Shown here in pieces: positions 8,451 to 30,419 of a stretch of DNA of 64,000 bases. The position numbers and the translations under genes were made by a program. Each line of letters starts with the position of its first letter. Within the stretch, counting starts at the first letter, position 1. The notes under the pieces were generated by a model. It had not been told where the DNA came from. It saw only the letters and a program-made list of their open reading frames with translations, and made no database searches. The DNA is from an uncultured virus (IMG/VR IMGVR_UViG_3300037840_000255) (Duplodnaviria; Heunggongvirae; Uroviricota; Caudoviricetes), in IMG/VR virus record IMGVR_UViG_3300037840_000255. One strand, written 5' to 3'.

Positions 8451-9365
8451 TTAATCGACCGTCGCGGCGGCGCGCCCGGCCTGGGACTCCGTCCCGATTC
8501 TCGGTCCCTGGCCGTTTGTCAGGAAGCCCACCGACGGGGGGCCAAACGTGGTGCGGGTCCAACCACTGAATGAGCAGATGTGGTTGGTCAACTCTCTCTG
8601 GTGGCGACCCCACGCGCGACGGAACTGATCGCACGCCCGCCACGGAGCTTTGCGCACGACGTGGCCGGCCTCCAGCGTCATGGGGACGCCGCAGAGGATG
8701 ATCTTGTCGAAGCCGACCTCGAGCGCGACCTTGATCGCGAACAGGCCGGAGCTACCGCCCCAGTCCGGCGTGTCGCGGTTGGCCACCTTGTGGCGACGGT
8801 GCGCCCACACGATGCCTGGAGGATCGAGGCCGCGCGCCGCCCTGGCGTCGCGCCACTCCCTGTCATACTTGTCCGGGTGAAGCGTCACGGCGTGGTCGAT
8901 GCGGTCGGGAAACAGCGAGATCGAGTCGTTGGTCACGAACGTCACCGGGTCGACTAGGGCCTCCTCGCACAGCTCCTTAGCCTGTCGCCATTCGTCGAAC
9001 ACGTCCTCGGCGCCGCCGATGACCACGGCGACCTGGTTAGGCGACGGCCTGACAACGGGAAGCTGCGGCGCGTTTCCGGGGATGGGGGCGGCCCGACGGG
9101 AAGTCGACGGCCTGGTCCTGATCTCGCGACGAGGTGGTGGCGCGGGCGGCGGAGCGATGACTGACTGCTGCTGAAAGCCGCCGTCCCCGGTCGTCGCCAG
9201 CTTAAGATGGTGCTGCCTCGACTGGATCATCCGCACCGTGGTCTCGCCTAGCGCGACGTTGAGGATCGTCTGCCCCGGCATGACCTTGATCATCCGCTGC
9301 GATCCTTGGATGCCGTCGTAGAAGATGCGAGTTGTTTTTGTCGGATTGTGGATGTCGTAGTTCAC
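8451..9365 (-). CDS. capsid-linked domain + Pro linker + Maf/sialyltransferase-like domain
   Basis: N-terminal YDIHNPTKTTR domain; VAVVIGGA, VTND, GSSGLFAIKVALEVGFDKIILCGV. Confidence 0.65.
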   Translation of the reverse strand: MNYDIHNPTKTTRIFYDGIQGSQRMIKVMPGQTILNVALGETTVRMIQSRQHHLKLATTGDGGFQQQSVIAPPPAPPPRREIRTRPSTSRRAAPIPGNAPQLPVVRPSPNQVAVVIGGAEDVFDEWRQAKELCEEALVDPVTFVTNDSISLFPDRIDHAVTLHPDKYDREWRDARAARGLDPPGIVWAHRRHKVANRDTPDWGGSSGLFAIKVALEVGFDKIILCGVPMTLEAGHVVRKAPWRACDQFRRAWGRHQRELTNHICSFSGWTRTTFGPPSVGFLTNGQGPRIGTESQAGRAAATVD

Positions 9366-10237
9366 GCCATCGCCCTTTCCCCAACGTCAACGTACTGCTC
9401 AAACGCCGCCATGATCGACTTGTAGTTATCTGTTTGCCAGACGATCTGCTGGTGCGGCGCGCTCTCGTCGAGTTGTGAGCCAACCGGCAAACCGCAGCCG
9501 GCGAGGAAAGACGGATTGGTCAGCGGCGCGCCGTCGGAGATCATCTTGAAGATCATGGCCGGCGCATCCAGCGCCAGCGCGAACCACGCCGGGCCGTTGT
9601 TGACGAACATGTTGCACGTGGCAGAGAGGTAGAGGCGGGCGCGAACATCTAGGACGTGAGACGCGATAAAATTTACCGGCTCGAAATCAAGACTAGGCTC
9701 GCATGCCATCTTGGTGTCTCGCACGAACACCATGTCGTAACCCTTGCGGATCAATTCTCTCTTGACGGCCAGCCACTCTGATATGTTGCTGTTTCGCATC
9801 GGCCAGTGCTCGGCCTCGCGAAGCGTGATGGTGACGAGCCTGGGATGGATCGGCGGCTCCGGCGGCGCTATGCGGAGCGGCCTGATGCCGTCGCGAAGGC
9901 ACTCCACCATGACCCGCGTCCCGTAGAGGCGCTGTCGCCATCCGATGCTGCCGGGAGCGCCTACGCTCGGTCGCGCTCCCAGGACCTCGACGCTGGCGCG
10001 CGGCAGCATCCTGGCCATCGGCACCGCGACGGCGTCCAGCATCTTCTGCCTGGCCTCGCGCCCGTGCGGCCAAAAGCTGTCGCGGCGAAAGCCGTCGGCG
10101 GAGCCGGGGATGATCTTGACGTCGATCCTGTCGGCGCCGCGACGCCGACGCTCTCTCTCGAAGGCCATTAGCCCCGCGACGATGTCGTAGGTCGGCGGGC
10201 AGACTTCGAGGTCCCAGTAGGCGGTGAAGCTGGTCAC
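9362..10237 (-). CDS. putative GT-B fold glycosyltransferase
   Basis: ITLRE..RNSNISEW..RARLYLSATCNMFVNNGPAW resembles a GT9-like C-terminal domain. Confidence 0.5.
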   Translation of the reverse strand: MTSFTAYWDLEVCPPTYDIVAGLMAFERERRRRGADRIDVKIIPGSADGFRRDSFWPHGREARQKMLDAVAVPMARMLPRASVEVLGARPSVGAPGSIGWRQRLYGTRVMVECLRDGIRPLRIAPPEPPIHPRLVTITLREAEHWPMRNSNISEWLAVKRELIRKGYDMVFVRDTKMACEPSLDFEPVNFIASHVLDVRARLYLSATCNMFVNNGPAWFALALDAPAMIFKMISDGAPLTNPSFLAGCGLPVGSQLDESAPHQQIVWQTDNYKSIMAAFEQYVDVGERAMA

Positions 10238-10458
10238 GCGGCTTCTTTCACGGCTTCTCGCGCGGCTCGTTCCAGCTCGTAAGGATCAGTGCCGTTCTGC
10301 ATGTAGGTTCTCAGTTGATCCTCAACGTTACGACGCACCACATCATCTGGGACACAGCCCATAATCGGACCCTGCCAAAGACCGCGAGGCCAGATCAAAA
10401 GTTGAATGGCGACTCTCATGCGCTGTATATCGCCAACAGAATACTTATGCTCGGTCAT
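10234..10458 (-). CDS. hypothetical protein
   Basis: GGAG RBS, 74 aa, coupled to the next gene. Confidence 0.65.
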   Translation of the reverse strand: MTEHKYSVGDIQRMRVAIQLLIWPRGLWQGPIMGCVPDDVVRRNVEDQLRTYMQNGTDPYELERAAREAVKEAA

Positions 10459-10476
10459 GATTGTTCTCCCGTTATG

Positions 10477-11934
10477 TTATCTCAAGGCATCGATGATCTG
10501 CTGCGCCACGGGGTGGTTCTTGGTTGGATTGCCGAGGACCTTGAATCGCTGGCGAAAGTTTCGCTTGTGGGCCGGCGACGTACGCCGCCGCGCCCACGTC
10601 AGCACCGAGTTGAAGTCCAGCTTGCCGTGGTGGTGGTCCTTGTAGGCGTAGCTCATCTCGCAGAAACAGCACTGCCGGTCGTTGAGGAACGCCACCTCGC
10701 CGTCCTGATAGTTCTGGAGCACATCATCGTCGATGGTGCCTCTGAACTTGAAGTCGCGGTCCTTCTTGATGAACATCGGCGTGAGATGGAAGCAGTGCAT
10801 GGTGACGTCGTCGCCGTCCTCGAAGAACAGCACCGACGGCGATCCGGAGTCGCCCTTGCCCCACAGGAACATGTTCGTGATGGGATGGCGATGTGACCAG
10901 ATGTATTGGGTCAGGGTCTCCGCGTCGGCACCTATCGGCGGGTCGTTGTTGTCCGCCACGGTGCGGATGCCCACCGATATGGCAACACGCTTATCGTGGG
11001 GCTCCAGGGCCTTCCCCACCACGTCGAATGTTTCACGTGAAACAACGATGTCGGCGTTGAGCAGGACGATGATCTCTCCCGGCTTGGCGATGTTCATGGC
11101 GTCGGCGTGGGCCTGCATGAACGCGGCCCAGTATTCCTTGGGCAACGGGTCCTTCTTGCCGTGGTAGTTCGGCAGGCTGACCTGGGGATACTCGACGTTC
11201 CAGCCGCTCAGCAGGGCGCCTATGCGCTCCCGGTCGTCGGTCCAGACGTTGAAGGTGACGCGGTCTGGCCCAATCCCGGCCGCCCCCAGCGACGCCAGCA
11301 CCGAGGGGATGACGTACTTCACGGTCAGGTCGACATATTCGGGACGCCACGACGGGATGGCAATGGACCACCTGAACTGGTCCCTGGTCACGTTGGCGGG
11401 GAGGTCGAAGCGACGGGTGACGCCCTGGCGCTGCGGCACCACCGACGGCCTGGCCTGGGGCTGAGGCATCCTGGCCTGTCGCGGCGGCGGTATGGTCCTC
11501 GGCGGCCTCGTAGAGAGTAGGGGCGGCGCGATGATGGTGGATTGCTGATCCGACGCGACGCCGTCGGCAGATGCCGGCGTCAGCTTGAGGTGCTCAACGC
11601 GCGACTGGATCATCTTGACGACGAGGTCGCCGAGAAAGACGTTCCGCAGGGTCTGGCCGGGATCGACCCGGATCATCCTGTTGGAGTTCGGCACGCCGTC
11701 GTGGACGATGCGGGTGGTCTTGGTCGGGTTGTGGATGTCGTACAGCATCGCGACGTTCTTCTCCGATGTGACTATGATCAAGTCGTCGAGATATTCTATC
11801 AGTCTTCGCGCGCCGTCTTGGCTCAGCGGCACCTCGGCGATGGTTTCACCGGACTCGATCCTGACCGGCTTGTTCCTGGCGTCGCTGATGACCCGCGTCG
11901 CGGCGGTCGGGTTGTGGACGTCATAGAGGAGCAT
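10477..11934 (-). CDS. two capsid-linked domains + Pro linker + GT-A-like glycosyltransferase
   Basis: two YD(V/I)HNPT repeats; SIAIPSW, NVWTDD, IIVLLNADIVV (DxD-like). Confidence 0.62.
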   Translation of the reverse strand: MLLYDVHNPTAATRVISDARNKPVRIESGETIAEVPLSQDGARRLIEYLDDLIIVTSEKNVAMLYDIHNPTKTTRIVHDGVPNSNRMIRVDPGQTLRNVFLGDLVVKMIQSRVEHLKLTPASADGVASDQQSTIIAPPLLSTRPPRTIPPPRQARMPQPQARPSVVPQRQGVTRRFDLPANVTRDQFRWSIAIPSWRPEYVDLTVKYVIPSVLASLGAAGIGPDRVTFNVWTDDRERIGALLSGWNVEYPQVSLPNYHGKKDPLPKEYWAAFMQAHADAMNIAKPGEIIVLLNADIVVSRETFDVVGKALEPHDKRVAISVGIRTVADNNDPPIGADAETLTQYIWSHRHPITNMFLWGKGDSGSPSVLFFEDGDDVTMHCFHLTPMFIKKDRDFKFRGTIDDDVLQNYQDGEVAFLNDRQCCFCEMSYAYKDHHHGKLDFNSVLTWARRRTSPAHKRNFRQRFKVLGNPTKNHPVAQQIIDALR

Positions 11935-12127
11935 CTACGCCGCGTCTCTTGTCCACGACGCTCGTGACCACGGTCTTGCTCTCGGTCGGCGGCAAGATGT
12001 GCTTGCTCCTCTGCATCAGGCCGATCCGCCGCATGAACTCGGCCTGGGCCTGGCGCATCGCCTCGCACAGCTTGCACGGAGTCTTCGGCTCTTCGTTATG
12101 TCGTCCAGGTCTGATGATGTTGAGCAT
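11921..12127 (-). CDS. small hypothetical protein with CxxC
   Basis: 68 aa, fills the gap in operon orientation. Confidence 0.55.
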   Translation of the reverse strand: MLNIIRPGRHNEEPKTPCKLCEAMRQAQAEFMRRIGLMQRSKHILPPTESKTVVTSVVDKRRGVDAPL

Positions 12128-12129
12128 GA

Positions 12130-13242
12130 TTACATTGGCCCCGCTCTGCCGATCTCCACCAAATTTGTGCCGTCGCCCCTGAACGTCACGGTCCAGTACA
12201 CGGCGTTGGAAGTGCCGGTGGACAGAATGGCTGTTGCCCTGAAGTTGGTGGAGAAGTCTATGTTGTAGTTCGTGGTCCCAACGGTGATGAACTCGAAGGT
12301 AACGATCATGCCTGCAGGCGCGTGGGCGGCGTTGATGATCATGTCCCCCGTCGGGGAAACTTGAAACATTGGACCTTCCGTCGAGGGGTCCACACTGACG
12401 GAGCCAGTAGTAGCCGGCGTATTGATCGTGCCGCCAAGATTGATCCAGTCAGTACCATTCCAGTACAGATTGTCACCCGGCGTGACGTGCGAGACCAGAA
12501 CGTCGGTCAAATCCTCAAGCGGGAAGTGGATTGCACTCGGAGAAATCCAATCCACGACGGCCGAGCCGCCCGGACTTCCCGGATCGACGAGGGCGAGGAT
12601 TTGCCCGACCGTGCCGCCGAGTGGAAACACCGTCGCCCACTCCGCTATCGCCGCGCCGTTCGGGCTTCCCTTGTCGACCAGCTTGAGATAATCGCCGATG
12701 TCGCCGCCGCTCGGAAGTATGTACTCCCACGCCGTGGTCGGCGTGGTCAGTCCACCTGGAATGGTGACGACGAGAGCCTGACCAACTTCGCCGCCTATCG
12801 GGGAATAGGATGGAGGCGCCGCCAACAGCAAGCCGTAGTAATTGTGCCCCATCCCGTCGTTGGCGTTGGGGTTGAACGTCGCCGCCGACGTGTGCTGGAA
12901 CTGAACGATGTAGGTGGCGCCGCCGGACGTGATGATGTCGAGCGGGTAATAAACGGTGAACGGCTGCCACGCGCCGCGATAGGTCCACACCGCCACCGGC
13001 AGAGGATACGGCCCCAGCGTCATGTGGTCAGTCAAGTGAACGTAGAAACTGTCGCCGACGACGCTGAAGTAATCGATGCCCGCGACGATGGTGCTCTGCA
13101 CCGACAGGATGAGCTGCCACAGGAACCAAAAATTGCTGTCGATTTGAAAGGCGTTGAGGTCCGATCCCTGACCCGCGCCCCACGGCGCGCTCGGCGGCAC
13201 ACCGCCAAGGTATGGAGGCCCCCTGAAATTGATGTCGCTCAT
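12130..13242 (-). CDS. tail fibre/adsorption protein
   Basis: GAWQPFTVYYPLDIITSGGATY carbohydrate-binding-like module; three P-x-GG-x2-G[QD]-x-L repeats. Confidence 0.7.
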   Translation of the reverse strand: MSDINFRGPPYLGGVPPSAPWGAGQGSDLNAFQIDSNFWFLWQLILSVQSTIVAGIDYFSVVGDSFYVHLTDHMTLGPYPLPVAVWTYRGAWQPFTVYYPLDIITSGGATYIVQFQHTSAATFNPNANDGMGHNYYGLLLAAPPSYSPIGGEVGQALVVTIPGGLTTPTTAWEYILPSGGDIGDYLKLVDKGSPNGAAIAEWATVFPLGGTVGQILALVDPGSPGGSAVVDWISPSAIHFPLEDLTDVLVSHVTPGDNLYWNGTDWINLGGTINTPATTGSVSVDPSTEGPMFQVSPTGDMIINAAHAPAGMIVTFEFITVGTTNYNIDFSTNFRATAILSTGTSNAVYWTVTFRGDGTNLVEIGRAGPM

Positions 13243-13254
13243 TTACCCCTCTTT

Positions 13255-15144
13255 TTATTTTGCAGTTGCCTGACCGGCGATCAAAAAGATTGCGCTGCCA
13301 TCAGGGAGTCGCGTGTCGGTGTTTTTTGTGATGTCCACAATCAGCCAATTCTCACTCTTGAATGAATCAGACGTTGGACCACCATTGCAAACTGCGATGA
13401 AGGAAGAACTAAAAGATTCGTCAGTGACTACGAATACACCTTGCGAGACGGCGCAATTCGTAGCGTTTATCATTCCGCCGCCGAGCGTCGCCGTAATCTG
13501 AGAGCCATCCGGCGCCGTGACGGTAACAGTATTGCTGATTCCGTTGAAAGGATTTGTGCTCCCGTTGCAAATTACCGTCGTTTGATTGCCGCCGGCATCC
13601 GTGTAAACCAACGCCGCATTGATTCCGCCATACGGATTCTTAGACAACCCACCCACGGCCGGCTCGAAAAACACTCCGCCGGAAAATGTCCACCACGCCA
13701 TTACGCCACTACCGCCAGCGCCTCCGGTCGTACCGTAAATAGGCTGCGGAAAAGTAATTGGATCGATTCCGGGAGCATTCGCCAATATCTCGAAGCCGGC
13801 CCCCGGCGGAGCCCAATACGCCGACAAAGCCCCACCCAAAGCCGGGTCGGCAAAGTCTGAAGCAGGGTCCGTCGTCGGTGTGTAGTATATGAATGTCGTC
13901 CAAGACAGTCCGTCTGGCGAAATTAAAAATACGGAATTCGGTACGACTATATCGAGATGATCAGTACCGGTCGAGGTAACCGCCCCACAGTAAAAGGCTT
14001 GTGCCTGGGGCGAGTAAACCACCTCATCGACCACAAGGGTGTTATACGTGGCCGTCCATTTTTTTCCATCCGTTGATGTTAATAGCTTTGCGCCACTGCT
14101 GGAATTGGGAAAAGGAGTTCCACTGATAACAAACGTTCCGGCTCCCGATAGAGGATGATTGGGATCGGTGTTTATTGGAGAAACAAGACCGATGATGTTG
14201 TTGAGCCCAAAGTTTCCTAAATTTTCCCAATTCACTCCGCCCTTTGAGTAGAGCACATGTTCATTGCCCTGTGGATCAATCGCGACGGCAACGAATATGC
14301 CAGGAATGCTGACCTTAACGATCTGCCACAGCAGTCCCTGGTTGATCATCACGTTGCCGGTGATGAAGCCTCCAGAGTCGGGGTTGAACGCCACGTAGAT
14401 GTCGGGATCGCCGGGGGGCACCGGAACCGGATTGCCCTGCTGATCGAAGCGATTGCCGGGGGGGATTTGATTTCCAGAAGGGTCAGTGTCGTAGACCGTC
14501 GAGTCGATAACTCCTCCATTGGCGATGGTGGCTCCCAAGTCCAGCACGTAGTTCTCGGCGTCGCCGTTCCTGGCGTAGAACGAGAACGCCACCGGCTGAT
14601 AGACCGTAAGGTAATTCTGCGTCGCGTTGGGGTTGATGCCGGTCTGGTATTGAGTGTTGGGCGGATTGCTGCTGCCGTCGTCGACCCTGGTGAGAATGCC
14701 GCCTCGCGAACCGCTGCCGCCGGTGACCACAGTGTCGTTCGGCGCGACGTAAGTGAGATTGTTCGGGTTGGAAACGATGGCCGTCTCAACCACCGTCGGC
14801 ATCAACAAGACGTACTCGTCTCCGTTCCTCTCGTAGAACGAGACGCCGTCCAGCACCTCGATGTAGAAGCTGTTGCCGGAATTATCCTGGCCGTTCGGCC
14901 CGTCGTCCTGGCCCTGTACCAACGTCATGTGCGAGACCCGAGTGGGATTCGCACCCGTCACGCCGTTGTTGCCTGCAGTCTGATCTACGATCGTCGGGCT
15001 GGCGTTCTTGGCCGGGCTGAGAAGGACCTGTTCGTCGCCGTTGCTCTTGGTGAACGAGATGGCGTCGATCACCCGAACGTCGATGAATAATTCCGGGTTG
15101 TTCGGGCTCCTGCACCTGACGTAGTGAATGAAGATCGACGCCAT
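13255..15144 (-). CDS. tail tip/receptor-binding protein
   Basis: three SF-x3-NGD repeats N-terminally; S-x-DG-x2-W Asp-box-like motifs C-terminally; position after the tail hub. Confidence 0.65.
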   Translation of the reverse strand: MASIFIHYVRCRSPNNPELFIDVRVIDAISFTKSNGDEQVLLSPAKNASPTIVDQTAGNNGVTGANPTRVSHMTLVQGQDDGPNGQDNSGNSFYIEVLDGVSFYERNGDEYVLLMPTVVETAIVSNPNNLTYVAPNDTVVTGGSGSRGGILTRVDDGSSNPPNTQYQTGINPNATQNYLTVYQPVAFSFYARNGDAENYVLDLGATIANGGVIDSTVYDTDPSGNQIPPGNRFDQQGNPVPVPPGDPDIYVAFNPDSGGFITGNVMINQGLLWQIVKVSIPGIFVAVAIDPQGNEHVLYSKGGVNWENLGNFGLNNIIGLVSPINTDPNHPLSGAGTFVISGTPFPNSSSGAKLLTSTDGKKWTATYNTLVVDEVVYSPQAQAFYCGAVTSTGTDHLDIVVPNSVFLISPDGLSWTTFIYYTPTTDPASDFADPALGGALSAYWAPPGAGFEILANAPGIDPITFPQPIYGTTGGAGGSGVMAWWTFSGGVFFEPAVGGLSKNPYGGINAALVYTDAGGNQTTVICNGSTNPFNGISNTVTVTAPDGSQITATLGGGMINATNCAVSQGVFVVTDESFSSSFIAVCNGGPTSDSFKSENWLIVDITKNTDTRLPDGSAIFLIAGQATAK

Positions 15145-15366
15145 TTAGGTCGATCCGAGGAACCCGGTATCAGCCTCCTGACTGACGTTGCCGATATACT
15201 GGGTCAGCGTCTGCGTGTAGCTGAAGGCCACCGTCTTGGCGACGCCCTGTACGGTGATGATCAGGTTGACGTCCGGCGCGCTGGCCGAACCGGGGAGACC
15301 GAAGCGAGTCGGCGACACGCTGCGGTCGGTGAACGGCCGAATGATGCCTTCCATGCCCTGGGCCAA
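15145..15366 (-). CDS. small tail protein
   Basis: GGAG RBS; 'MEGIIRPF' 73 aa in the tail module. Confidence 0.65.
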   Translation of the reverse strand: MAQGMEGIIRPFTDRSVSPTRFGLPGSASAPDVNLIITVQGVAKTVAFSYTQTLTQYIGNVSQEADTGFLGST

Positions 15367-15375
15367 GTTACTCTC

Positions 15376-17916
15376 CTACGCGAGCGGCGGCGCCGCCAGG
15401 TTGATGCCCATGTCGATTTGCAGTTGAGACGTCGAGATGCCGTAGGCGCCGAAGAACGGACCGTTCTGGACGTTGGGCAGGTAGATCGAGATGGTCGTGG
15501 CGTTCTCGGCGATGTAGGCCTGGATCGCCTCGATGTTGTCGGCGATGGCCGCCTCCTCGTAGTCGAGCATGGTGGCGCCGGCGCCGAGGAGAATAGCCGG
15601 AATGGTCAGCGTGTATGGCGGGATGCCTCCGCCGATGGTGCCGATGTTGACGGTGCCGGGAAAGCCCCTGACCGGAACGCGCCCGTCGTCGTATGGAGGA
15701 TAGGCGGATGGCGGCGTGTAGGTGATGTCCTGGCCCTCGGTCGGGCTATACGACACGCCGAAGAACTGCTGATAGCCGGACTGCGCGTAGCCGTCGAGCG
15801 CGTAGCACTCCATCCCCGGCTCGGGGCTGACGTGGCCGCCGTAGCCGACCGCAACGCCGATCTCGACGTGGCCCATCAGCTTGCCGGTGTCGTCCGCCTC
15901 CATGCTGTAGGAGATGATCTTGCCGGTGGCGTTGCCGCCGGGGAGCCGCGGATCGAAGATAGTCGCCGACATGCGGCAGCTCAGGCCGGTGACGTAATCG
16001 ATGGGACAATCGAACACCACGGTCACGGTCCTGGCGCGCTTGCGCATCAGCGCCCTGGCCTTGGCAATGCCGAACTCGATGCTCCACCGGCCGCGGTCGC
16101 TGGGGAAGTAGTTATTGGCCAACACCTGGGTCGGCGTGCCGCCGATTGGGATGCCGAGCATGGCAGGCGTCGGGGACAGTACCCACCACATCAACCCCTC
16201 GTTCTGAGGTGGCGGGAATGGGCCGTGGAAGTCTCCGTAGGGCGACGGCCCCAAGATGACGCCGGGATCGAGCGTGGCGCACACCTTGACCGGCGGCCTG
16301 CCCTGACCGGCCACCAGCACCGGGCCATCGCACGTCACGCAGGTCGGCGTCCCCGGCGACGTGCCGGGCGCCACCGCCATGAGGTAGAGCGCGGCGCCCG
16401 ACGGCTCGTACTGGCAGGCATCGGTGTTCAGCTCCAACGGCTCCCAGATCACGATCTCGCCGAGGGAGAAGAACGTCCCGGCCGACCACTGCGGGATGCT
16501 GGTCAGCGGCGCCGGGCCGGCGCTCACCCAGATGACGTGACCGTCGTAGGTCAGCGTGCCGGCGATATCGCTGAACACCGGCGCCACGGTGCCGGCGCGC
16601 CCCGGGCCAACGCATATCTGATAGCTCAGGCCGCCGGCCTGGGTCGGGTCGTTGTTGAAGATGATCTGTCCTAGACCGACTTCCTGGCCGGAGAAGTCCG
16701 ACCACGCGTCGACGATGATCAGCGGCTCGCCGACGTCGGCGCCGTCCAGCGTGATCACCTTGGTGTCCTGCTGCACCGTCGGCATGTTCAGGACCGGCTG
16801 CGTGTTGGCGAAGATGCTGATCACGGCGGTCTCGGAGAAGTCACGCTGGGCCTGGGCGCGAAGCGTCGCATAGCACGTCAGCGACCAGATCGGGATGATG
16901 GTGCCGACGATCTTGACCACGCCGGGCACCAGGATTGGCGGCTGGACGACGCGCGGCACGTTGATCAGGCTCGGCAGCGGCTTTCGCGGATTACAGATCG
17001 CGGCCTGCGCGGCCTCGGCCGAGAACACGTATCCCGGCGGGTTCGGCACCGGGAACGACATGTTGGTAGACCACGACTGAATGTCGCAATCCTGCTTCTT
17101 AGTGTTGAGGTTCTGGTAATTGTACGAGGAGCTGACGGTCCTGATGGCATCGATCCAGATTGGCTGGGCGACGTAGCTGTAGTCGCAGGCCCAGCCGCCG
17201 CCCATCGACTGGCCCGGCTTGAGCCACGACCCGGCGATGGTGCCGCCGGTGATCGACGACACGCTGGTCGACGGCATCTGGATGCCAGTGAATAGGCCGC
17301 GCTGGGTCCACTTGGTCCGCATCTGGACCTGGACGCTGGTCAGCGGCGACTCACCGACAGTGTAGTTGAAGTTCTTGTAGAGCGCCTGGTTCTCCTCGAA
17401 GACGACGATGCCGTCCTCGCCTTCCAGGATGTCGCTGGCCGTGGTCTGGAGCGTGACCCGGTCGACGTGCCACAGCGAACTCCAACCCTCCAAGATGGCG
17501 TCGGGATCGTCCCTGGAACGAATATCGAGGAACACCGGGTCCCAGTATGGCCTCACCCGCATGGTCTCGGCGACGGCCTGCTTGTCGGTAAGGTAGGTCG
17601 GCGATCTGGCGATGAACTTCAGCTTGATCAGCTCATCGTTCAGCCCGCTCGGTATGCCCACCAACATGCCAAAGAACAGCGGCTCGGCGCCGGAGCCGTT
17701 CGGCAGGTCGCGCGAGAACCACGCCCATATCTTGCGGTGAGGATCGAGGAAGCCTACGCGCGGGTTGAGGATGGTGATCTCCAGCGTCGCGACCTGGCCT
17801 TCCTCGTGCAATATCTTGAACGCCAGGATGTTCTCGTCCATCACGAGCATCTCGTGACCGAAGACGTTCTGATCCTGATCGACCCACGCGAAGTAGAACT
17901 TCTGGGCGAACGCCAC
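15376..17916 (-). CDS. large minor tail (hub) protein
   Basis: 846 aa beta-rich protein two genes after the tape measure. Confidence 0.7.
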   Translation of the reverse strand: MAFAQKFYFAWVDQDQNVFGHEMLVMDENILAFKILHEEGQVATLEITILNPRVGFLDPHRKIWAWFSRDLPNGSGAEPLFFGMLVGIPSGLNDELIKLKFIARSPTYLTDKQAVAETMRVRPYWDPVFLDIRSRDDPDAILEGWSSLWHVDRVTLQTTASDILEGEDGIVVFEENQALYKNFNYTVGESPLTSVQVQMRTKWTQRGLFTGIQMPSTSVSSITGGTIAGSWLKPGQSMGGGWACDYSYVAQPIWIDAIRTVSSSYNYQNLNTKKQDCDIQSWSTNMSFPVPNPPGYVFSAEAAQAAICNPRKPLPSLINVPRVVQPPILVPGVVKIVGTIIPIWSLTCYATLRAQAQRDFSETAVISIFANTQPVLNMPTVQQDTKVITLDGADVGEPLIIVDAWSDFSGQEVGLGQIIFNNDPTQAGGLSYQICVGPGRAGTVAPVFSDIAGTLTYDGHVIWVSAGPAPLTSIPQWSAGTFFSLGEIVIWEPLELNTDACQYEPSGAALYLMAVAPGTSPGTPTCVTCDGPVLVAGQGRPPVKVCATLDPGVILGPSPYGDFHGPFPPPQNEGLMWWVLSPTPAMLGIPIGGTPTQVLANNYFPSDRGRWSIEFGIAKARALMRKRARTVTVVFDCPIDYVTGLSCRMSATIFDPRLPGGNATGKIISYSMEADDTGKLMGHVEIGVAVGYGGHVSPEPGMECYALDGYAQSGYQQFFGVSYSPTEGQDITYTPPSAYPPYDDGRVPVRGFPGTVNIGTIGGGIPPYTLTIPAILLGAGATMLDYEEAAIADNIEAIQAYIAENATTISIYLPNVQNGPFFGAYGISTSQLQIDMGINLAAPPLA

Positions 17917-17918
17917 GA

Positions 17919-21113: not shown

Positions 21114-21114
21114 C

Positions 21115-21761: not shown

Positions 21762-21762
21762 G

Positions 21763-22059: not shown

Positions 22060-22409
22060 CCGACGCCCTCGGGGAAGGTCATGGCGAATATCTTGACGAT
22101 GGCGGAGAGTTGCTCGGTGACGCTCAGCGTCTTGGCCACCTTGGCGGATTCCTCGACCTTGGATAGCCAGTCGGGTTCCTCCGGCGCGACGGCGCCAACG
22201 CCGACCACCATGGCGATGTTGTCGGGACCCATCTGCATCAGACGCTCCGGCTGTATCTCGGATGCGCGGCCGTCGAGCAGTAGCCTCACCTCCTCCGACT
22301 GGCGGATCAGGTAGAACAGCCCGGCCGGCGCTATCGGGTACAGCGTCACGTCCTTGCCGCGGACCTTGACCGTGTCGGTCAACGGGCCGACGTCGAGAAG
22401 AGAAACCAT
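21894..22409 (-). CDS. tail assembly chaperone (gpG-like)
   Basis: GGAGG RBS; follows the tail tube gene; contains GPF slippery codons. Confidence 0.8.
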   Translation of the reverse strand: MVSLLDVGPLTDTVKVRGKDVTLYPIAPAGLFYLIRQSEEVRLLLDGRASEIQPERLMQMGPDNIAMVVGVGAVAPEEPDWLSKVEESAKVAKTLSVTEQLSAIVKIFAMTFPEGVGPFVDALRSLTDGLDQAVREGAGSALENKSLNGVNAQVITDISQIPSGASTPRAN

Positions 22410-22511
22410 TTAGAACCTCCCTTAAAAAACTGGCTGTGCGTGGCCCGACTTTCGGCCTTCCATCTAGGCAGTCAACCGTTGATGGCGCAGCGCACCCTAC
22501 GCTGAAGCAAC

Positions 22512-23345: not shown

Positions 23346-23365
23346 GGGGTTAGTTCTCCTTTTTC

Positions 23366-23878
23366 TTATAGTTGCCTGACGTCGAAGGTGTACGAGATGA
23401 TTAAGTTTATTTGCAACTGGGCTCCGAGCGTACCGATGGTGCTGCCCGACTTCATGTCGGTCTCGATGCCATCGTAGTCGACCTGGCCGTTAGGCCCGCA
23501 CATGGCGATCAACTGCTGGTCAGGCACGATGATCTTCAAGATGGCCGCGCGCATCGCGGAGATGGCCGGGCCGGTCGGTGCCGGTTGTCCCTGGTAGGTC
23601 TGCGGGTAGACCGCGGCGTCGATGTTGTCGACCATGGGCAACAGGACGAATATCTGAGGCGTCAGCGCGTAGACCGCCGGCGGCATGGCGACGAGGCTGT
23701 GACCCTTGCGGTCGGTCACCAGCTTCTCGTCGCCGTCGAGCAAGACGATGCCTGGCTTCTGCGCCTCGGTGAGCTGGCTGGCGTCGCGAAAGATGTTGGC
23801 CACACTGATGCCTGGCGTCTGCGGCAGCAGGCCGGTATAGATGTAGTTCAGTATCTGCTCGCGCTTGTCGAGACTCAT
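23366..23878 (-). CDS. tail terminator-like protein
   Basis: DKREQIL..PGIVLLDGDE; immediately before the tail tube gene. Confidence 0.65.
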   Translation of the reverse strand: MSLDKREQILNYIYTGLLPQTPGISVANIFRDASQLTEAQKPGIVLLDGDEKLVTDRKGHSLVAMPPAVYALTPQIFVLLPMVDNIDAAVYPQTYQGQPAPTGPAISAMRAAILKIIVPDQQLIAMCGPNGQVDYDGIETDMKSGSTIGTLGAQLQINLIISYTFDVRQL

Positions 23879-24258
23879 AGTCGTGCCGCGATCTTCCAGT
23901 AGAGGGTTATACCGGCCGGCGCGAACGGCACGACAGGGGCAGTGAAGCGAAGCTGTGCGGCCTCAACCGGAGGATTTGATACCGGCTGAACGTAGGTCAC
24001 GAGGCGGTCTAAGTCCCGATTGGGCGGCGTCGCATTGAGTGCCGTGGATGTGGCTATCAGAACCATGCGGTCGGTGGGATCGACCAACTTACCAATTCTC
24101 TCCACTGCATTCCATTCACGGACATACGCGATGCACGGCCTGTCGGCCATGCCGTTCCTCCGCAGCGACGCGGCCTCGCCCCACTTGTAGATCATATTGG
24201 TGGCGACGGCGGCCGAGCGCGTGTAGTCGTGCGTGAGCGGGGGCAAGGGGCTGACCAT
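23875..24258 (-). CDS. head-closure/neck protein
   Basis: DYTRSAAVATNMIYKWG..TDRMVLI..PFAPAGITLYW. Confidence 0.7.
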   Translation of the reverse strand: MVSPLPPLTHDYTRSAAVATNMIYKWGEAASLRRNGMADRPCIAYVREWNAVERIGKLVDPTDRMVLIATSTALNATPPNRDLDRLVTYVQPVSNPPVEAAQLRFTAPVVPFAPAGITLYWKIAARL

Positions 24259-24356
24259 CAGTGCTTCAGTTTTTCCATAGTCCAGCAAAAAAGCACAATG
24301 ATCATCCCTATCGATGCTCCAATCATAAATGAAACTATGATGGCTTGGGGGAACAT
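24258..24356 (-). CDS. 32-aa single-TM peptide
   Basis: TGATG-coupled at both ends; AT-rich. Confidence 0.5.
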   Translation of the reverse strand: MFPQAIIVSFMIGASIGMIIVLFCWTMEKLKH

Positions 24357-24721
24357 CACACGACAGCAATGGCCGGAATATTTCGCTGAAGGATCGCCAG
24401 GTAGCGGAGGCCGAATGCGGTCATGGCCCAGTCTGACGGGTCCTTCATGGTCGGGACGACCTGGGCCAGATATGATATGCTCATCTCGCCGATCCTCTCC
24501 GACGACACGATCTGCCCCGAACCGCTCTCCATGCGCTGAAGCCCGACCATGAGGAAGTGAGCCACCACGTAGCTGATGGCCAGGAGTTGCTCTGTCGCGG
24601 TGCCCCAACTGCCGTCCACCACCAGGCTGGCCTCCTCGATGGTGAACTCGACCACGTTGTCAGGCACGCTGGCGAACACCGGAAAGCGATTCTTGATGCT
24701 CAGGGCGGTGGGGATTTGCAT
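24356..24721 (-). CDS. head-tail adaptor (DUF4054-like)
   Basis: RFPVFASVPD..VAHFL..SERIGEMSISY..TAFGLRYL. Confidence 0.85.
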   Translation of the reverse strand: MQIPTALSIKNRFPVFASVPDNVVEFTIEEASLVVDGSWGTATEQLLAISYVVAHFLMVGLQRMESGSGQIVSSERIGEMSISYLAQVVPTMKDPSDWAMTAFGLRYLAILQRNIPAIAVV

Positions 24722-24722
24722 G

Positions 24723-24995
24723 TCACTTAACCTGCCGCAGCGCCACCTCGGAGGAGCGAGGCTGCTCGTCCGAGTGGCCACCTTCTGTCAAAGGGAGGTT
24801 ACTGAGCTGACGAAGATCGCTCTCCATGCTCTTCAGGTCCATCTCTCTCTCGGCGACGACGGCGTCGCCCACGGCGAACGCCTCGGGCTCGCGTCGGTCC
24901 AACGCGTCGAGGCGACGTCCCCACTCATCGGCCTTGGCGTCGTGCGCGGCCTTCTTCTGCTTGATGCGCGCCGCAACCTCAGACAGCTTACTCAT
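24723..24995 (-). CDS. coiled-coil hypothetical protein
   Basis: GAGGAAGG RBS; charged helical 90 aa. Confidence 0.6.
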   Translation of the reverse strand: MSKLSEVAARIKQKKAAHDAKADEWGRRLDALDRREPEAFAVGDAVVAEREMDLKSMESDLRQLSNLPLTEGGHSDEQPRSSEVALRQVK

Positions 24996-25082
24996 GCCTT
25001 CCTCCCTCGCGATTTTTTCGCGTTCCGCACGAACGTGAAATTGACAAACAATAATGGCCACAGCCAAGCGATCCACACTGAC

Positions 25083-25448
25083 TCACTCCCGGTTCTCGGT
25101 CATCGTCACGGTCATGATGCCCTGCGTCGTGGTGATCTTGTTGTCCGACGGATCGACGATAGACAGCTCATGATAATAGTTGCGGAGGAGAGCCACGGTG
25201 TCGTCGCGATACAGCGTGACCAGCACCGTAAAGGCCGGCGACTCCAGGACCTGAATATCCCCACCCCCGCTGAGCGAGTTCTTGGCGATGACCGGGGGGA
25301 CGCCGGCAGTCGGCAGCCCCACGGTCTGCTCGTAGGCGTTCCAGTAGACCGTGTAGTGGTCGAAGCTGAGGATACCCGGCAGCGTCAAATCGAACGTGAT
25401 GACCGTCTCGTCGCCGGCAGCAACCGAGAAGTTCTGGATGTCCGGCAT
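25083..25448 (-). CDS. Ig-like virion protein (BppU N-terminal-like)
   Basis: AGDETVITF..VTLYRDDT..YYHEL..TTTQG. Confidence 0.65.
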   Translation of the reverse strand: MPDIQNFSVAAGDETVITFDLTLPGILSFDHYTVYWNAYEQTVGLPTAGVPPVIAKNSLSGGGDIQVLESPAFTVLVTLYRDDTVALLRNYYHELSIVDPSDNKITTTQGIMTVTMTENRE

Positions 25449-25449
25449 T

Positions 25450-26643
25450 TTAGCGGCTTCCAGTCAGCGTCACGGATCGTCGCGGAGCCGGTGAGAATTG
25501 GCCCAGCCATTTCCCCGGCAAGCCGCGCCTGACCGCGCCAGTCGCGGCCACGGATACCAGATCGGCTCGGCCTGGGAATGCAATTGAAACGGCATGACCA
25601 GATGCGGCAACATCGACTAGTGGCTTGGAGATATGCGCCGAGAATACAGACTTGGCGCCCGTGGTCGCTGCGTCACCCATCTTGACGGCAACCGACGCGG
25701 TGACCGAGGCAACCGCGCCATCGGCCGCGACGCTGACCAGCGTTACCGCCTCACCAGGAACCGCATCGACTGTGCCAGCAACGCCATCTACTGAGGCGGC
25801 GGCAAGCGTCTTGAACAATTCTACGCTGAACGGTTCGACCACAGACGCAGCGGCAATTCCCGTAATATCGACTAAGGTTCCGGCTATCGGCGTGAACGTA
25901 TCTACGGCACCGGAGGCACTCGCGGCGATCAGATCGAAACTGACTGGGACGCTTACTTCGACAGTCTCCACGGCGCCAACAGTTGCGGCACTCGATAACG
26001 AATGAATAATATTTGGAACAAACGCCTCTGCTGTGGTGCTGGCGCTCGAGGCCGCCAAAAGTTTAGAGGCATCCCCCTCAATGCCGAAGGCTTCTGCAGC
26101 ACTGGCCATCGATACATAGCTCGTCGCGATGGATAGATGCGGAATCGTTGCTTCGACAGCAGCCGCGGCACTTATCGCGACAAGCAACTTGGAGCCATCA
26201 GCCTCGATAGAGAACGACTCGACGGCGCCAGTCCCTGCAATGTCACCGATTGACCTATAAATGTTCGGCAACAACGACTCGACGGCGCTAGTCGCCGCAA
26301 CCGACGATAGCGTCGGTCCGATTTTTCTGGTAATCGACTCAACCGCGCCCGCCGCTGTAACGGAAATCAACGTCTTGGCGATGGTTGGCTTGACTGACTC
26401 AACGGCGCTCGTGGTAGTAGCCGCAATAAGGACAGGCTGATCAGTTGGCTTTAACGCCTCCACGGCACTCGTGGCGGCAACGCCAGATACCGCGTGGCTT
26501 ATGCTCGGCTTTAATGCGACAACCGCACCGGATACCGTCGCCGCAACCAACGCGAACGTGACGCCGGGAAGCTGCGTCGGATCGAGCAGCTGGATATTGT
26601 TTTGCGGCGACTGGCCTGGAGTGAGGTATATGTTGAGGGCCAA
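25450..26643 (-). CDS. Ala/Val/Ser/Thr-rich repetitive fibre-like protein
   Basis: recurring L-x2-[VA]-AA-[TS]-[SG]-AVE[SA] unit at roughly 20-24 aa spacing. Confidence 0.7.
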   Translation of the reverse strand: MALNIYLTPGQSPQNNIQLLDPTQLPGVTFALVAATVSGAVVALKPSISHAVSGVAATSAVEALKPTDQPVLIAATTTSAVESVKPTIAKTLISVTAAGAVESITRKIGPTLSSVAATSAVESLLPNIYRSIGDIAGTGAVESFSIEADGSKLLVAISAAAAVEATIPHLSIATSYVSMASAAEAFGIEGDASKLLAASSASTTAEAFVPNIIHSLSSAATVGAVETVEVSVPVSFDLIAASASGAVDTFTPIAGTLVDITGIAAASVVEPFSVELFKTLAAASVDGVAGTVDAVPGEAVTLVSVAADGAVASVTASVAVKMGDAATTGAKSVFSAHISKPLVDVAASGHAVSIAFPGRADLVSVAATGAVRRGLPGKWLGQFSPAPRRSVTLTGSR

Positions 26644-26644
26644 C

Positions 26645-27145
26645 TTAGACTCCGGTCAACTCTTGAATTGTAGTCCCAGCAGTCTCGGGCGATCCCGCCA
26701 GATCAGCCACGGCAAAGCAATTGACTGCATTCGGATCACCGCAAGTGAAGCTGCCATCGGGGGCGCTGGTCTGCGTATCGACAAGCAATCCCGTCGCGGT
26801 ATTAAACAGCATTACGGTCGCGCTAGAGACAGCCGCGCCACTGGCATTGAGCACTTTACCGATGACCTTCTTGCGCACATGACATCCGGTCGGCGGCCAG
26901 TACCATTCCCAGCGTTCCGCCATCACGTCCTCGGCAGAGACCTTGTTGCTGTCTGAAAACATCGCGGGGAAGCTCGACCGCGTCCAGATAATATCGCTGA
27001 AGTGGTCATTCCCATCTGATGTTAGCGGCTTTGTGGTGCGAAAATCGGCGCTTTGCAAGCTCTCGTCGTTTTGATGCCAGCCTGGTTCGATCATTTGAGC
27101 CGACCCGGCTGCAGCCGAACTAATATGTCCCAAAAATCCCGACAC
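26645..27145 (-). CDS. hypothetical protein with carboxypeptidase-regulatory-like beta domain
   Basis: GKVLNASGAAVSSATVML..TSAPDGSF. Confidence 0.6.
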   Translation of the reverse strand: MSGFLGHISSAAAGSAQMIEPGWHQNDESLQSADFRTTKPLTSDGNDHFSDIIWTRSSFPAMFSDSNKVSAEDVMAERWEWYWPPTGCHVRKKVIGKVLNASGAAVSSATVMLFNTATGLLVDTQTSAPDGSFTCGDPNAVNCFAVADLAGSPETAGTTIQELTGV

Positions 27146-27148
27146 GGG

Positions 27149-27673
27149 CTACGCCCCTTCTTCTATCTCGACGCAGGGGTCAAAAGCCAGCACTTCGTTA
27201 ATTCCGTTTACTGAAGTTGTAGCGACCCATACAACGATGGAGGAGGACGGTGGCAACATGAGCGAGCGTTTAAATCTGAAAAGAATAGGCTGCGTCGTGA
27301 CGCCATTTGCCACTGTGCCAGCCCCTTGCGTTGATACCCTTCGCAAATACGTTGTCGGCGCAGTTGGGGGTTTTTGCCAAACAGTGAATAACGTCGCCAA
27401 TGGTAAACTCGTGGTATCGCCGCCATCGGCATGGATGAAACTTGATCCAAAAACGCCAATGCCTTTAATGGCCGGCGTTCCGACGCCAAGGCATGTTTGC
27501 GTACCATATCCGCTCGGACAGATAATCCCGCAATAAATGGCGGATATGGCAAGATGATCTGTCGGAGACGTTTGCAGTTCAAACAAAGGACCGACACCGG
27601 CAACACTAGGGACAGCGCCGCCCTGTAGTCCGCCGTTTGCCGATAATGTGGACTGGCAAAATAACGTCCCCAC
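27149..27673 (-). CDS. putative virion beta-sandwich protein (paralog 2)
   Basis: PTAPTTYLRRVS shared with the neighbouring gene. Confidence 0.65.
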   Translation of the reverse strand: MGTLFCQSTLSANGGLQGGAVPSVAGVGPLFELQTSPTDHLAISAIYCGIICPSGYGTQTCLGVGTPAIKGIGVFGSSFIHADGGDTTSLPLATLFTVWQKPPTAPTTYLRRVSTQGAGTVANGVTTQPILFRFKRSLMLPPSSSIVVWVATTSVNGINEVLAFDPCVEIEEGA

Positions 27674-27678
27674 CGAGA

Positions 27679-28110
27679 TTACTCATCCACCACGATCCAA
27701 ACATCAACCACCGAATTTGCCGTGACATTCCACAAGATCGTCGTGATCGTCTTGAGCACGTTGATGCCGCGCGGGAAGGTCCAAATGATGCCAGCGCCGA
27801 TAGTTGCCGGCGTCGACACGCGCCGCCAGAAGTTCGTCGGCGCTGTCGGCCCCGTCGCCCAAGTTGTGCCCGTTGTGGTATTGCCAGAAGTCGTGTTGCC
27901 CTGATCTTCCGCCTGCACGGTCGAGCCGTTCGCCGGCGTGACCCCCTTCGCAGCCGGTGGAGCAAAGCCGAAGACGCTTGCCGTCGCGGCATTCTGCGTA
28001 ATGCCAAATTCCTTCAGCGAATAGGCATTGTTCGCACCGGCGATGATCTCAAGCGCCGCCGTGGTGGTAGTCGCCACGGACGTTCGATTGGCGACGGAAA
28101 AGATGGCCAT
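27679..28110 (-). CDS. putative virion beta-sandwich protein (paralog 1)
   Basis: PTAPTNFWRRVS; Thr-rich. Confidence 0.7.
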   Translation of the reverse strand: MAIFSVANRTSVATTTTAALEIIAGANNAYSLKEFGITQNAATASVFGFAPPAAKGVTPANGSTVQAEDQGNTTSGNTTTGTTWATGPTAPTNFWRRVSTPATIGAGIIWTFPRGINVLKTITTILWNVTANSVVDVWIVVDE

Positions 28111-28113
28111 GGC

Positions 28114-28380
28114 TCAATACTCCAAGCGGCGGATTTCTCCGGTGAACGGGTTGAACATCACGCGAGAGCGCGACGCCAAGGATTGCGCCGCGGCTTCCAT
28201 TCGACTCATCTCAGTATCGCTGATGCGGCCATGATCGCGCTGAGCCTGCGCCAGCCACAGGTGGAACTGCGCCATCGAGGGATCGATTGCCGCATGCGTG
28301 TTCGGCTCGCGGTTCTCAAGAGGCAAGAGTCTGCCGAGATGCACCTTTATGCTCCCTGATGGCCTCGATGACTTCAACAA
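28114..28380 (-). CDS. hypothetical protein
   Basis: fills the gap in operon orientation; start uncertain. Confidence 0.45.
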   Translation of the reverse strand: MLKSSRPSGSIKVHLGRLLPLENREPNTHAAIDPSMAQFHLWLAQAQRDHGRISDTEMSRMEAAAQSLASRSRVMFNPFTGEIRRLEY

Positions 28381-29320
28381 TCACAGGCCCCCAATCCCCC
28401 GGCCTGTTCTGCCGGAACAATCGAGCGGTCGGATACCACAGCGTAAACTGGCTGCGCTGCCCCCATCGCCAATCGCAATCGACACCCAGCATGACGAAGG
28501 TCGGCTTCCCCATGACACCGGCGACGTGCGCGGCCAGCGTGTCGACCGTCACGACAAGATCAAGATTGTCTATCAGCGCCGCCATATCAGCCACGTCGTC
28601 GAAGCCAGCCTCCTCGCGCGACAGGCTGATGAAATCGAATTCCTTGGCAAGCGGTGCCAAGTCTATCTGGCCAATCGACCGTACATCATCGCGCACGTTG
28701 TTCTTATTGCCGTGCCAGCAAAGCCCGATCTTGATGCCGTTGGTTCGCTTCGCCCAATCTGCCGCAAGCAATGGCAACGGCTTAATGTAGGCTTGACCGG
28801 GAATGTTCTGCGCCGTCACGCCGAACAGAAGTGGCAGGCTCATCAGCGAGCACTGAAAGTCAAACGATGGTTTACGATCACCATAGGCGAACACGTCGGC
28901 GTCAGGATTATTGAACTGACAGAGACGGACCACGGGGTGCTGCAATTCGATCTGTAAATTCCGACAACGTTTCCTCACTTCCGGCACGAAGCGAAGCATC
29001 ATGACGCTGTCGCCCAACCCCTCGTCGGCCCACAGCAGAACATTGTGGATGGTGCGTCGACCGTCCCACATCGGGCGATCCTGGTAGCGCGAGCCGTACT
29101 TGCCGGCATTGATTCTCTGATGCCGTAGCTCAAACAATGGCAGGCCCGTCCTGTAGTCGCCGTGCGACAGCGCGATGATGCCCTTGAGGAATAGAGCACC
29201 AGTCAGCGTCGGCTCCATGGCCAGCGCGGAGTTGAGACAGTTCATCGCCTCTTGGTCGCGCTGCTCCGCGTGCAGGTTGTAGGCCCGCATCGACAGGGAC
29301 ATCGGCATGTCGGCTTGCAT
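28316..29320 (-). CDS. TPR + GT9-like glycosyltransferase
   Basis: TPR helices; EGLGDSVMMLRF, LMSLP, IGLCWHG, DLVVTVDTLAAHVAG, DWRW, WYPTARLFRQ. Confidence 0.88.
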   Translation of the reverse strand: MQADMPMSLSMRAYNLHAEQRDQEAMNCLNSALAMEPTLTGALFLKGIIALSHGDYRTGLPLFELRHQRINAGKYGSRYQDRPMWDGRRTIHNVLLWADEGLGDSVMMLRFVPEVRKRCRNLQIELQHPVVRLCQFNNPDADVFAYGDRKPSFDFQCSLMSLPLLFGVTAQNIPGQAYIKPLPLLAADWAKRTNGIKIGLCWHGNKNNVRDDVRSIGQIDLAPLAKEFDFISLSREEAGFDDVADMAALIDNLDLVVTVDTLAAHVAGVMGKPTFVMLGVDCDWRWGQRSQFTLWYPTARLFRQNRPGDWGPVIVEVIEAIREHKGASRQTLAS

Positions 29321-29326
29321 CGTTTG

Positions 29327-29791
29327 TCAGTTCAATTGCAGGAGTGACGTCCCAACTCCGTTGGAAGGCTGCACCAGCGTGAACGTCCCAGCAGTAACGG
29401 TCTCAGTACCACCAAACGAGCCGACGTACACGGCCTTGTTAGATGCGCTGGTGTTGTAGATGATGCATCCAGAAGTGCTGAATGTAGCCGGCGTCCAGCT
29501 CGGATTGACGCTCCACTGCCAGTAGGCGCCGGTGCCCGACGTCAGCGGCGTTATGTTCTGAGCCGCAGTCCAGGCAAAGCCCCCGGTCGTGTAGCCGGTG
29601 GCATTCGGCAACTCGTCGGAGTTGCCGGTCAAATTGCTGTAGTTGGTGGTCGCGGCGCCATAGGTTCCGGTCGGCGTGGCGATGCCAAGTGCGCAACTGA
29701 AGACGTGTCCCGTGGTGGCCGTAAAATTATGGATCGCCTGGGGCAGTTCCCCCTTGAACGAGGTGGGAAATGCGGTGGTGAAGCCAGCCAT
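29327..29791 (-). CDS. head decoration/fibre protein
   Basis: TSFKGEL..HNF..GYTTGG..SW..ATF..GCIIYN..AV..FGG..TAGTFT family motif. Confidence 0.7.
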   Translation of the reverse strand: MAGFTTAFPTSFKGELPQAIHNFTATTGHVFSCALGIATPTGTYGAATTNYSNLTGNSDELPNATGYTTGGFAWTAAQNITPLTSGTGAYWQWSVNPSWTPATFSTSGCIIYNTSASNKAVYVGSFGGTETVTAGTFTLVQPSNGVGTSLLQLN

Positions 29792-29809
29792 CTTGTTCTT
29801 CCTTCTTTG

Positions 29810-30121
29810 TTATCTGAGCTGGGCGTGCTGTCTCTCTATGTCGAGCGACGTGGCGAAGTCTCTCGCGATGATCTCGTTGATGCGTCGTCGCGCGACATCG
29901 TCCGCAGCCGACATGGCAAATAGGGTGCGGATCATTTGCTGGATCGCGCCGTGAGCATGGACCAGCTCGCGACGAAGCTTCTCCACCTTGGCCGGATTGT
30001 CCTGAGGCGACGCGAGCTGATACAGCGTCATGTCCGCCAGGGTCTCCGGCGTGTGGGCGCCGCGATCCGTCTTGAATATCCTGAATGGTTCCGGCGACGA
30101 TGCGGTTCTGACGCTGTCCAT
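29810..30121 (-). CDS. hypothetical protein
   Basis: 103 aa in operon orientation. Confidence 0.6.
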   Translation of the reverse strand: MDSVRTASSPEPFRIFKTDRGAHTPETLADMTLYQLASPQDNPAKVEKLRRELVHAHGAIQQMIRTLFAMSAADDVARRRINEIIARDFATSLDIERQHAQLR

Positions 30122-30122
30122 A

Positions 30123-30419
30123 TCAGGCCGCCCTGCCCTTGCCGCCGCCGAGCTGGTCGGGGACGTCGTCGAGCGCCGGGCGCGGCGCCTTGACGCTGGA
30201 CGCCGGCTTGACGTTGGTGATCTCCAGGTCTCCGGTTCGCTTCATCAGCATGTCGGCCATGTGCTTGGCTAGGACGACATTCTCCTTGATCTGGCCTGGG
30301 TCGAGCCAGATGCGCTCGGAATTCGCGAGGCCGTCGAACACGCTGCGCGGATGAGTCAGCGGGTTCTTGATGGTGCAGGTGACGGTCTCGAAGGTAACGT
30401 TGTGCATTCTCTCGTTCAC
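30123..30419 (-). CDS. small protein after the capsid gene; stand-alone copy of the domain fused to the GT-like genes
   Basis: TIKNPLTHPRSVFDGLANSERIWLDPGQIKENVVL; GGAG RBS. Confidence 0.7.
   Translation of the reverse strand: MNERMHNVTFETVTCTIKNPLTHPRSVFDGLANSERIWLDPGQIKENVVLAKHMADMLMKRTGDLEITNVKPASSVKAPRPALDDVPDQLGGGKGRAA

Follow-up and report, generated by a model that had tools for sequence, protein, structure and literature searches.

The window analyzed here (the whole 64,000-nucleotide stretch, from IMG/VR virus record IMGVR_UViG_3300037840_000255) belongs to a tailed phage whose genes, by Pfam and PHROG annotation, are read on the minus strand in the order terminase (47865), portal (41215), protease (32086), cement (31510), capsid (30519–31466), neck and tail genes, and an enzyme cluster (8451–11934). 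We focus on a domain of about 57 amino acids (aa) that stands alone in a small gene directly after the major capsid gene and recurs at the N-termini of two enzymes of the cluster (Table 1). The initial annotation had described one domain in four copies, one following the capsid gene and three fused to glycosyltransferase (GT)-like enzymes. All three domain-bearing open reading frames (ORFs) that it named are present on the minus strand with the coordinates of Table 1, and the gene upstream of the stand-alone copy indeed encodes a capsid protein of the DUF2184 type.

One domain in four copies

The four segments align with one another, sharing invariant N, P, R, D, G, V, L, and L residues, and their similarity is significant when judged against 2000 shuffles. 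The three fused copies are 31, 38, and 21% identical to the stand-alone copy, which aligns with the copy in 8451–9365 at z 11.3, with the second copy in 10477–11934 at z 15.5, and with the first copy in 10477–11934 at only z 3.8 (7 of 2000 shuffles scored as high); the two best fused copies align with each other at z 42.9. Among all six-frame pieces of the window, a profile built from the three fused copies recovered the stand-alone ORF at E 1.5e-7 and revealed no fifth copy, the next match having an E of 1.5. The related Pro/Arg linker (QQS..IAPP) reported for the two fusions is present in both. The domain's predicted structure is confident (pLDDT 89) and comprises four strands, a helix, and a further strand, with an Arg that is near-invariant (40 of 42 sequences). 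The stand-alone protein is 98 aa long, and its gene probably starts at the ATG at 30407.

The 485-aa protein encoded by 10477–11934 adopts a GT-A fold in a confident model (pLDDT 93), bearing out the earlier GT-A-like assignment. Its fold search returned 304 matches at E 0.001 with TM scores of about 0.3–0.4, including COLGALT1 (E 1.4e-6), RmlA, SpsA, and RmlT. The protein contains an invariant N-x-D and a conserved TIDDD stretch, and the N-x-D may be equivalent to the DxD metal-binding motif. The third GT-like gene said to lie between the fusions (9362–10237) is present, together with a 74-aa ORF, and its GT assignment comes from weak matches; the sole PDB match, TibC, is a protein O-heptosyltransferase. 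Likewise, the Maf/sialyltransferase-like label given to 8451–9365 reflects weak matches only, to phrog_4603, CstI, and MptE-like proteins. Its SG..A..IA..LG...I.L.G stretch is common to the sialyltransferase CstI and MptE-like proteins, and a below-cut-off MptE-like match recurs in 28 of 63 relatives.

As in a glycosylation cassette, the window thus combines three GT-like genes after the tail genes with a Methyltransf_24 gene in the head module, the latter homologous to the methyltransferase that other phages encode next to their GT-A gene or as a fusion with it. The gene at 28316–29320 may be a candidate cassette member as well; it is a fourth GT-B-like gene, and its N-terminal part looks like helical repeats. 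This gene is one of several, some of them Ser/Thr-rich, inserted between the post-capsid gene and the adaptor (25083–30121).

Table 1. Head-module and enzyme-cluster features of the window that bear on the domain
Coordinates	Strand	Feature	Evidence or remark
34979..35590	-	SAM methyltransferase in head module, likely cassette part	Methyltransf_24 E 1.8e-6
31510..32037	-	Capsid cement/decoration protein, alternative target or acceptor	Pfam Phage_cement E 9.5e-25
30519..31466	-	DUF2184-type major capsid protein, putative docking target	Pfam PF09950 E 4e-76; phrog_264; 45% to Pam3 gp7
30123..30419	-	Stand-alone gene after capsid gene, ~57-aa beta/alpha domain (about 30207-30383) and low-complexity tail	gpFI/YqbF-like slot; model pLDDT 89
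28316..29320	-	Another GT-B-like gene without tag, located with head-tail genes	Glyco_transf_9 E 7e-4, below cut-off
10477..11934	-	Tandem domain copies (about 11755-11928; about 11566-11742), then Pro/Arg linker and GT-A-fold domain (residues 188-485)	Model; N-x-D in place of DxD
10234..10458	-	74-aa ORF inside enzyme cluster, no known family	Pfam, PHROG searches
9362..10237	-	Untagged GT-B-like gene	TibC E 0.016; Glyco_transf_9-bearing cluster score 0.93
8451..9365	-	Single domain copy (about 9186-9362), then Pro/Arg linker and Maf/GT42/MptE-like domain (residues 111-284)	phrog_4603 E 0.0087; CstI E 0.53

The domain in related phages

The initial annotation had suggested surveying phages for the domain's position beside DUF2184 capsids and for its fusion partners. 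We collected 53 loci by capsid alone, independently of the domain, and counted the 50 with downstream DNA; some of these records are near duplicates, and one represents this same phage. The domain follows the capsid gene at no more than 300 bp in 36 of the 50 loci and at 424 and 785 bp in two more; it is absent from 12, which have the most distant capsids (33–54% identity). Because a profile–profile comparison matches the next genes of five of these 12 to the domain (probability 88%, E 3e-6), the post-capsid slot seems older than the reach of our profile. Ten loci found by the domain itself comprise eight in which it directly follows a DUF2184 capsid gene, one enzyme fusion, and one without upstream DNA; single-protein locus scans found nothing. 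An apparent capsid-domain fusion at locus L004 was rejected, as the domain gene retains a ribosome-binding site and an ATG of its own; the capsid gene's 3' end is short there by about 150 bp (2330–2450), likely an assembly error that creates a false in-frame fusion. At locus L044, a gene labeled tail-tube-like by eye (4291–4827) separates the capsid and domain genes.

A profile of the four copies gathered 127 cluster representatives, of which five long matches (P0035, P0087, P0116, P0120, and P0140) were dropped as repeat-driven chance matches. Most of the remaining 122 are short: 111 are below 180 aa and consist mostly of the domain plus a low-complexity tail. Among genuine domain proteins of at least 180 aa in this domain-only search, 9 of 11 are GT-like fusions, representing four families, and two have only a helical tail. 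No other enzyme partner was seen, and a last search for longer domain proteins (9 matches, insensitive) gave no new one. A motif match places the helical tail at the end of 11 of 146 domain proteins; we take this short C-terminal motif, which has no Pfam match, to be a helical HeH-like domain.

The same recurrent fusion emerges from whole virus records. Of 49 examined, 32 contain the domain and 11 a real second copy, which is present in 8 of the 10 domain-containing records that are at least 90% complete; a second match in record G007 was weak (E 0.003) and not confirmed. All 11 second copies precede a GT9-like domain at the protein's N-terminus. In 10 of them GT-A-like and methyltransferase domains come next, and 8 end in a Maf-like domain, forming single proteins of 1013–1282 aa. 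These modules were delimited with profiles built from those same proteins, and their names derive from Methyltransf_11 (E to 1e-10), from weak matches to Glyco_transf_9 and Glycos_transf_2, and from the GenBank labels of relatives. A homologue of the window's 12130–13242 gene lies nearby in 7 of the 11 second-copy records. Instead of a polyprotein, the window has separate GT-A, GT-B-like, and Maf-like genes, with the domain on two of the three; the third enzyme, the GT-B-like one, bears the domain in relatives P0048 and P0080. The complete genomes G030 and G032 keep the stand-alone copy without a second copy.

We also found a parallel arrangement outside this clade. None of the nine loci found by the GT-A domain has the ~57-aa domain; six have untagged genes among head genes. 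In two others, the HK97-type phages L068 and L070, the capsid gene is immediately followed by Maf-like, methyltransferase, GT-A, and GT-B-like genes, and the Maf-like and GT-A proteins each begin with another domain of about 45 aa. This second domain occurs twice per record and never alone, its single named match is weak (DUF7210, E 0.075), and homology to the ~57-aa domain was not detected (probability 0.6%). From its position and pattern, it too may be a post-capsid head-binding domain. The fusion of small N-terminal domains to GT-like enzymes is clade-wide and apparently convergent.

A possible tether between enzymes and the phage head

We favor, at a probability of roughly 55%, the interpretation that a gpFI-like head-binding domain has been reused to tether enzymes to the head for virion glycosylation. 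This interpretation draws on the stand-alone copy's place beside the capsid gene, on the occurrence of second copies at the front of GT9-like proteins (11 of 49 records, 10 of them with GT-A-like and methyltransferase domains as well), on the GT-like fusions among long domain proteins (9 of 11), and on the HK97-type phages that place the same enzymes after the capsid gene with a different tag. Further support comes from the nearest solved enzyme relatives, which though weak include the protein O-heptosyltransferase TibC, and from the mycobacteriophage cassettes considered below. It also draws on the weak gpFI-like fold matches; the available text of two papers describes gpFI as probably binding the prohead via the major head protein and connecting the prohead to terminase (PMC13595911, PMC7889075).

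In this scheme, the domain would serve a gpFI/YqbF-like accessory protein as its head-binding module, and the gene behind the capsid gene would preserve it in stand-alone form. A paralogue would have become the N-terminus of glycan-building enzymes early in the history of the phage clade, and the tag would have stayed while the enzyme set was exchanged, giving a GT9-like/GT-A/methyltransferase/Maf-like polyprotein in most relatives versus separate genes in the window. Late in infection, the tag would dock the enzymes on proheads or heads via the flexible Pro/Arg linker, and the docked enzymes would add sugars from host nucleotide-sugar pools to Ser/Thr residues of virion proteins and methylate the glycan.

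The observations that weigh against such tethering concern the domain's fold, the identities of the enzymes, their untagged relatives, the history of the copies, and the acceptors. Searches of Pfam, PHROG, and PDB sequences with the domain gave no match, and no curated gpFI/YqbF family matched the stand-alone protein in those collections. In a structural search of 48,161 chains, none reached Z 5, and the top matches had Z 3.7–4.2 and rmsd 2.8–4.2. The top ten include residues 3–56 of 7X30 chain P, YqbF (Z 3.9, rmsd 4.2, 51 aligned, rank 6), and the gpFI C-terminal domain (Z 3.7, rmsd 3.3, 55 aligned, rank 8), the latter two tied with unrelated domains; GINS B domains and an arsenite methyltransferase tie with these head-related folds. 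Foldseek against PDB and BFVD gave nothing at E 0.001, its top ranks being urease beta and many small unnamed phage proteins. A fold match this weak means little alone; taken together with gene position, it points to a gpFI-like module. By analogy, the domain may work like the gpFI head-binding domain, a likeness that does not establish family membership.

On the side of the enzymes, two of the three GT calls (9362–10237 and 8451–9365) come from weak matches and are best treated as leads. Nucleotidyltransferases such as RmlA share the GT-A fold, and the Maf-like domain also resembles MptE, a diphosphokinase. The substrate, moreover, might not be a virion protein: the tag could bind the head or packaging motor so that enzymes are loaded inside or on the particle, or so that DNA is modified at packaging, with DNA or a host surface molecule as the substrate. 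It is well established that GT-A and GT-B enzymes can glycosylate phage DNA, and the neck-module Maf/MptE-like gene of PAJU2 is annotated 'structural protein' in its record. The bridging of prohead and terminase-DNA by gpFI, as given in the available text (PMC13595911, PMC7889075), would fit this alternative, but the clusters sit with genes for the head, neck, or tail and the nearest solved enzyme relatives, though weak, are protein or glycan transferases, and we regard it as unlikely.

Most homologous enzymes carry no tag: 76 of 80 Maf-like loci (the best 80 of 143), 108 of the 120 Maf-like proteins listed out of 153, and 27 of 31 GT-A relatives are untagged, and at locus L069 the GT-A gene lies away from structural genes. 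Across 12 genomes, fused copies show no special closeness to the stand-alone copy of the same genome (p 0.21), and both kinds of copy track capsid similarity (fused: Mantel r 0.70), as shared descent would give. The scarcity of tags and the fused copies' tracking of capsid similarity are what one would expect if the enzymes glycosylated virions or host O-antigen without the domain's help, the fusion being an old accident in which a gene start was captured from the post-capsid gene and inherited vertically. However, the domain is intact on four enzyme families, and the change of enzyme set was accompanied by its duplication and relocation; in HK97-type phages, the same enzymes bear another tag that looks unrelated, making a mere accident improbable.

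In a tree with few supported forks, the fused and stand-alone copies form separate lineages, which together with the missing own-copy closeness indicates that the fusion is old. The same two observations lend no support to the co-oligomerization of fused and stand-alone copies put forward in the initial annotation. A wider form of that idea is that the domain is a self-association module, assembling the enzymes into a complex that may or may not include the stand-alone protein and replacing the polyprotein's covalent links, so that the capsid is not needed. It would account for the window, where the enzymes are separate and two bear near-identical tags, one as a tandem pair, when most relatives have one polyprotein. 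Yet a polyprotein that already joins all the enzymes still keeps one N-terminal tag, the copies' lineages are separate, and the stand-alone copy persists in G030 and G032 without a partner; we accordingly assign self-association a low probability.

The acceptors under the tethering interpretation would be virion proteins. The window capsid ends at a single Thr and has no Ser/Thr-rich C-terminal extension. Ser/Thr-bearing residues follow the capsid's final DG-I motif in 8 of 11 relatives, with none in 2 of 11, and these residues could be glycan acceptors.

More tentatively, tailed phages of different capsid lineages might each have turned a post-capsid gpFI-type domain of their own into a portable address tag that brings glycosylation enzymes to the assembling head, independently of one another and with a tag family specific to each capsid family (this domain for DUF2184, the second for HK97-type). 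We know of no account of how phage glycosyltransferases single out virion proteins in the cytoplasm; independent tag recruitment, if true, would explain that choice and provide a ~57-aa tag for loading any protein onto the head. Because the capsid-linked domain is separable, the targeting question can be tested by a 57-residue deletion or a GFP fusion, and the domain could supply a capsid-loading tag. The results also extend predicted virion glycosylation to a large uncultured DUF2184-capsid clade and suggest a second use of gpFI-type domains beyond DNA packaging.

Several other minus-strand genes of the window deserve mention. Between the portal and head-morphogenesis genes lies an ADP-ribosyltransferase (37580–38638; Pfam ADPrib_exo_Tox E 1e-19; Alt-like PHROGs), possibly delivered by the virion, and the head module also contains an AMP-binding enzyme fragment (39189–39848; Pfam E 6e-12). 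The head protease (32086–34008; DUF2213) has an N-terminal ChaB domain and a zinc ribbon. A 178-aa gene between terminase and portal (43681–44217) repeats part of a 656-aa gene (5744–7714; E 3e-26) that comes after a lysin-like gene. Genes for a Lipase_3 protein, an HNH-like endonuclease, and a PhyH-type dioxygenase follow the lysis region (1975–4807), and an IS1595-family transposase gene occupies 58905–59975.

Comparison with known systems

Like lambda gpFI and YqbF (PDB 2LSM, 2HJQ), the stand-alone protein is encoded by a small gene directly after the major capsid gene, and it may share their small beta/alpha fold, the structural matches being weak. Popovic 2012 is said to describe a second, helical domain in gpFI. 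Some relatives of our domain similarly add an acidic linker and short helical domain (the 11 of 146 counted by motif), whereas the window's 98-aa copy has no helical partner domain. Unlike gpFI and YqbF, with which sequence similarity is undetectable, the domain here has paralogues fused to GT-like enzymes. The available text of PMC4493119 also gives TP901-1 a gpFI-like protein. Among cultured phages, the capsids nearest to the window's are 44–47% identical (Acinetobacter phage Silvergun, Pam3, and Rhizobium phages), and none of those compared with family members gave a match. Pam3 gp8 itself occupies the same post-capsid slot with a similar layout of acidic linker and short helical domain, and it showed no match to the domain.

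In the Staphylococcus jumbo phage S6 capsid, residues 3–56 of the 301-residue 7X30 chain P give a weak match (Z 4.2, rmsd 2.8, 54 aligned, 18% identity), in which a module of the domain's shape forms the N-terminus of a larger protein within the capsid. We presume this chain to be a Hoc-like outer protein, and found no paper on it.

Pseudomonas D3/PAJU2-like phages have a GT9-like domain ~28–30% identical to that of the polyprotein, beside Maf/MptE-like and methyltransferase-like genes among the head-tail genes; unlike the enzymes described here, their neck-module GT genes have no detected tag. In PAJU2, the untagged trio of Maf/MptE-like, GT9-like, and methyltransferase-like genes is ORF010–012 (L115:3950–5893) of the neck module. 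Cultured D3-like phages are candidates in which to test virion glycosylation in Proteobacteria phages.

Freeman et al. 2023 reportedly described virion glycosylation cassettes of the mycobacteriophages Che8, Corndog, and Myrna. As far as the available text goes, the capsid and tail tube of cluster O phages are glycosylated by tandem GTs together with an O-methyltransferase (PMC11600133), and capsid and tail tube are the known acceptors (PMC12363180, PMC11600133). These cassettes resemble the present one in combining several GTs with a methyltransferase in a tailed phage; they differ in enzyme families and capsid lineage, and the portions available mention no capsid-linked targeting domain. With such cassettes already known, the initial designation of a new system was too strong, and the element is best described as a gpFI/YqbF-like post-capsid domain. 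Our literature search, thin in subscription papers, found none joining a post-capsid domain to glycosyltransferases. gpFI and virion glycosylation are each known; the link between them may be new.

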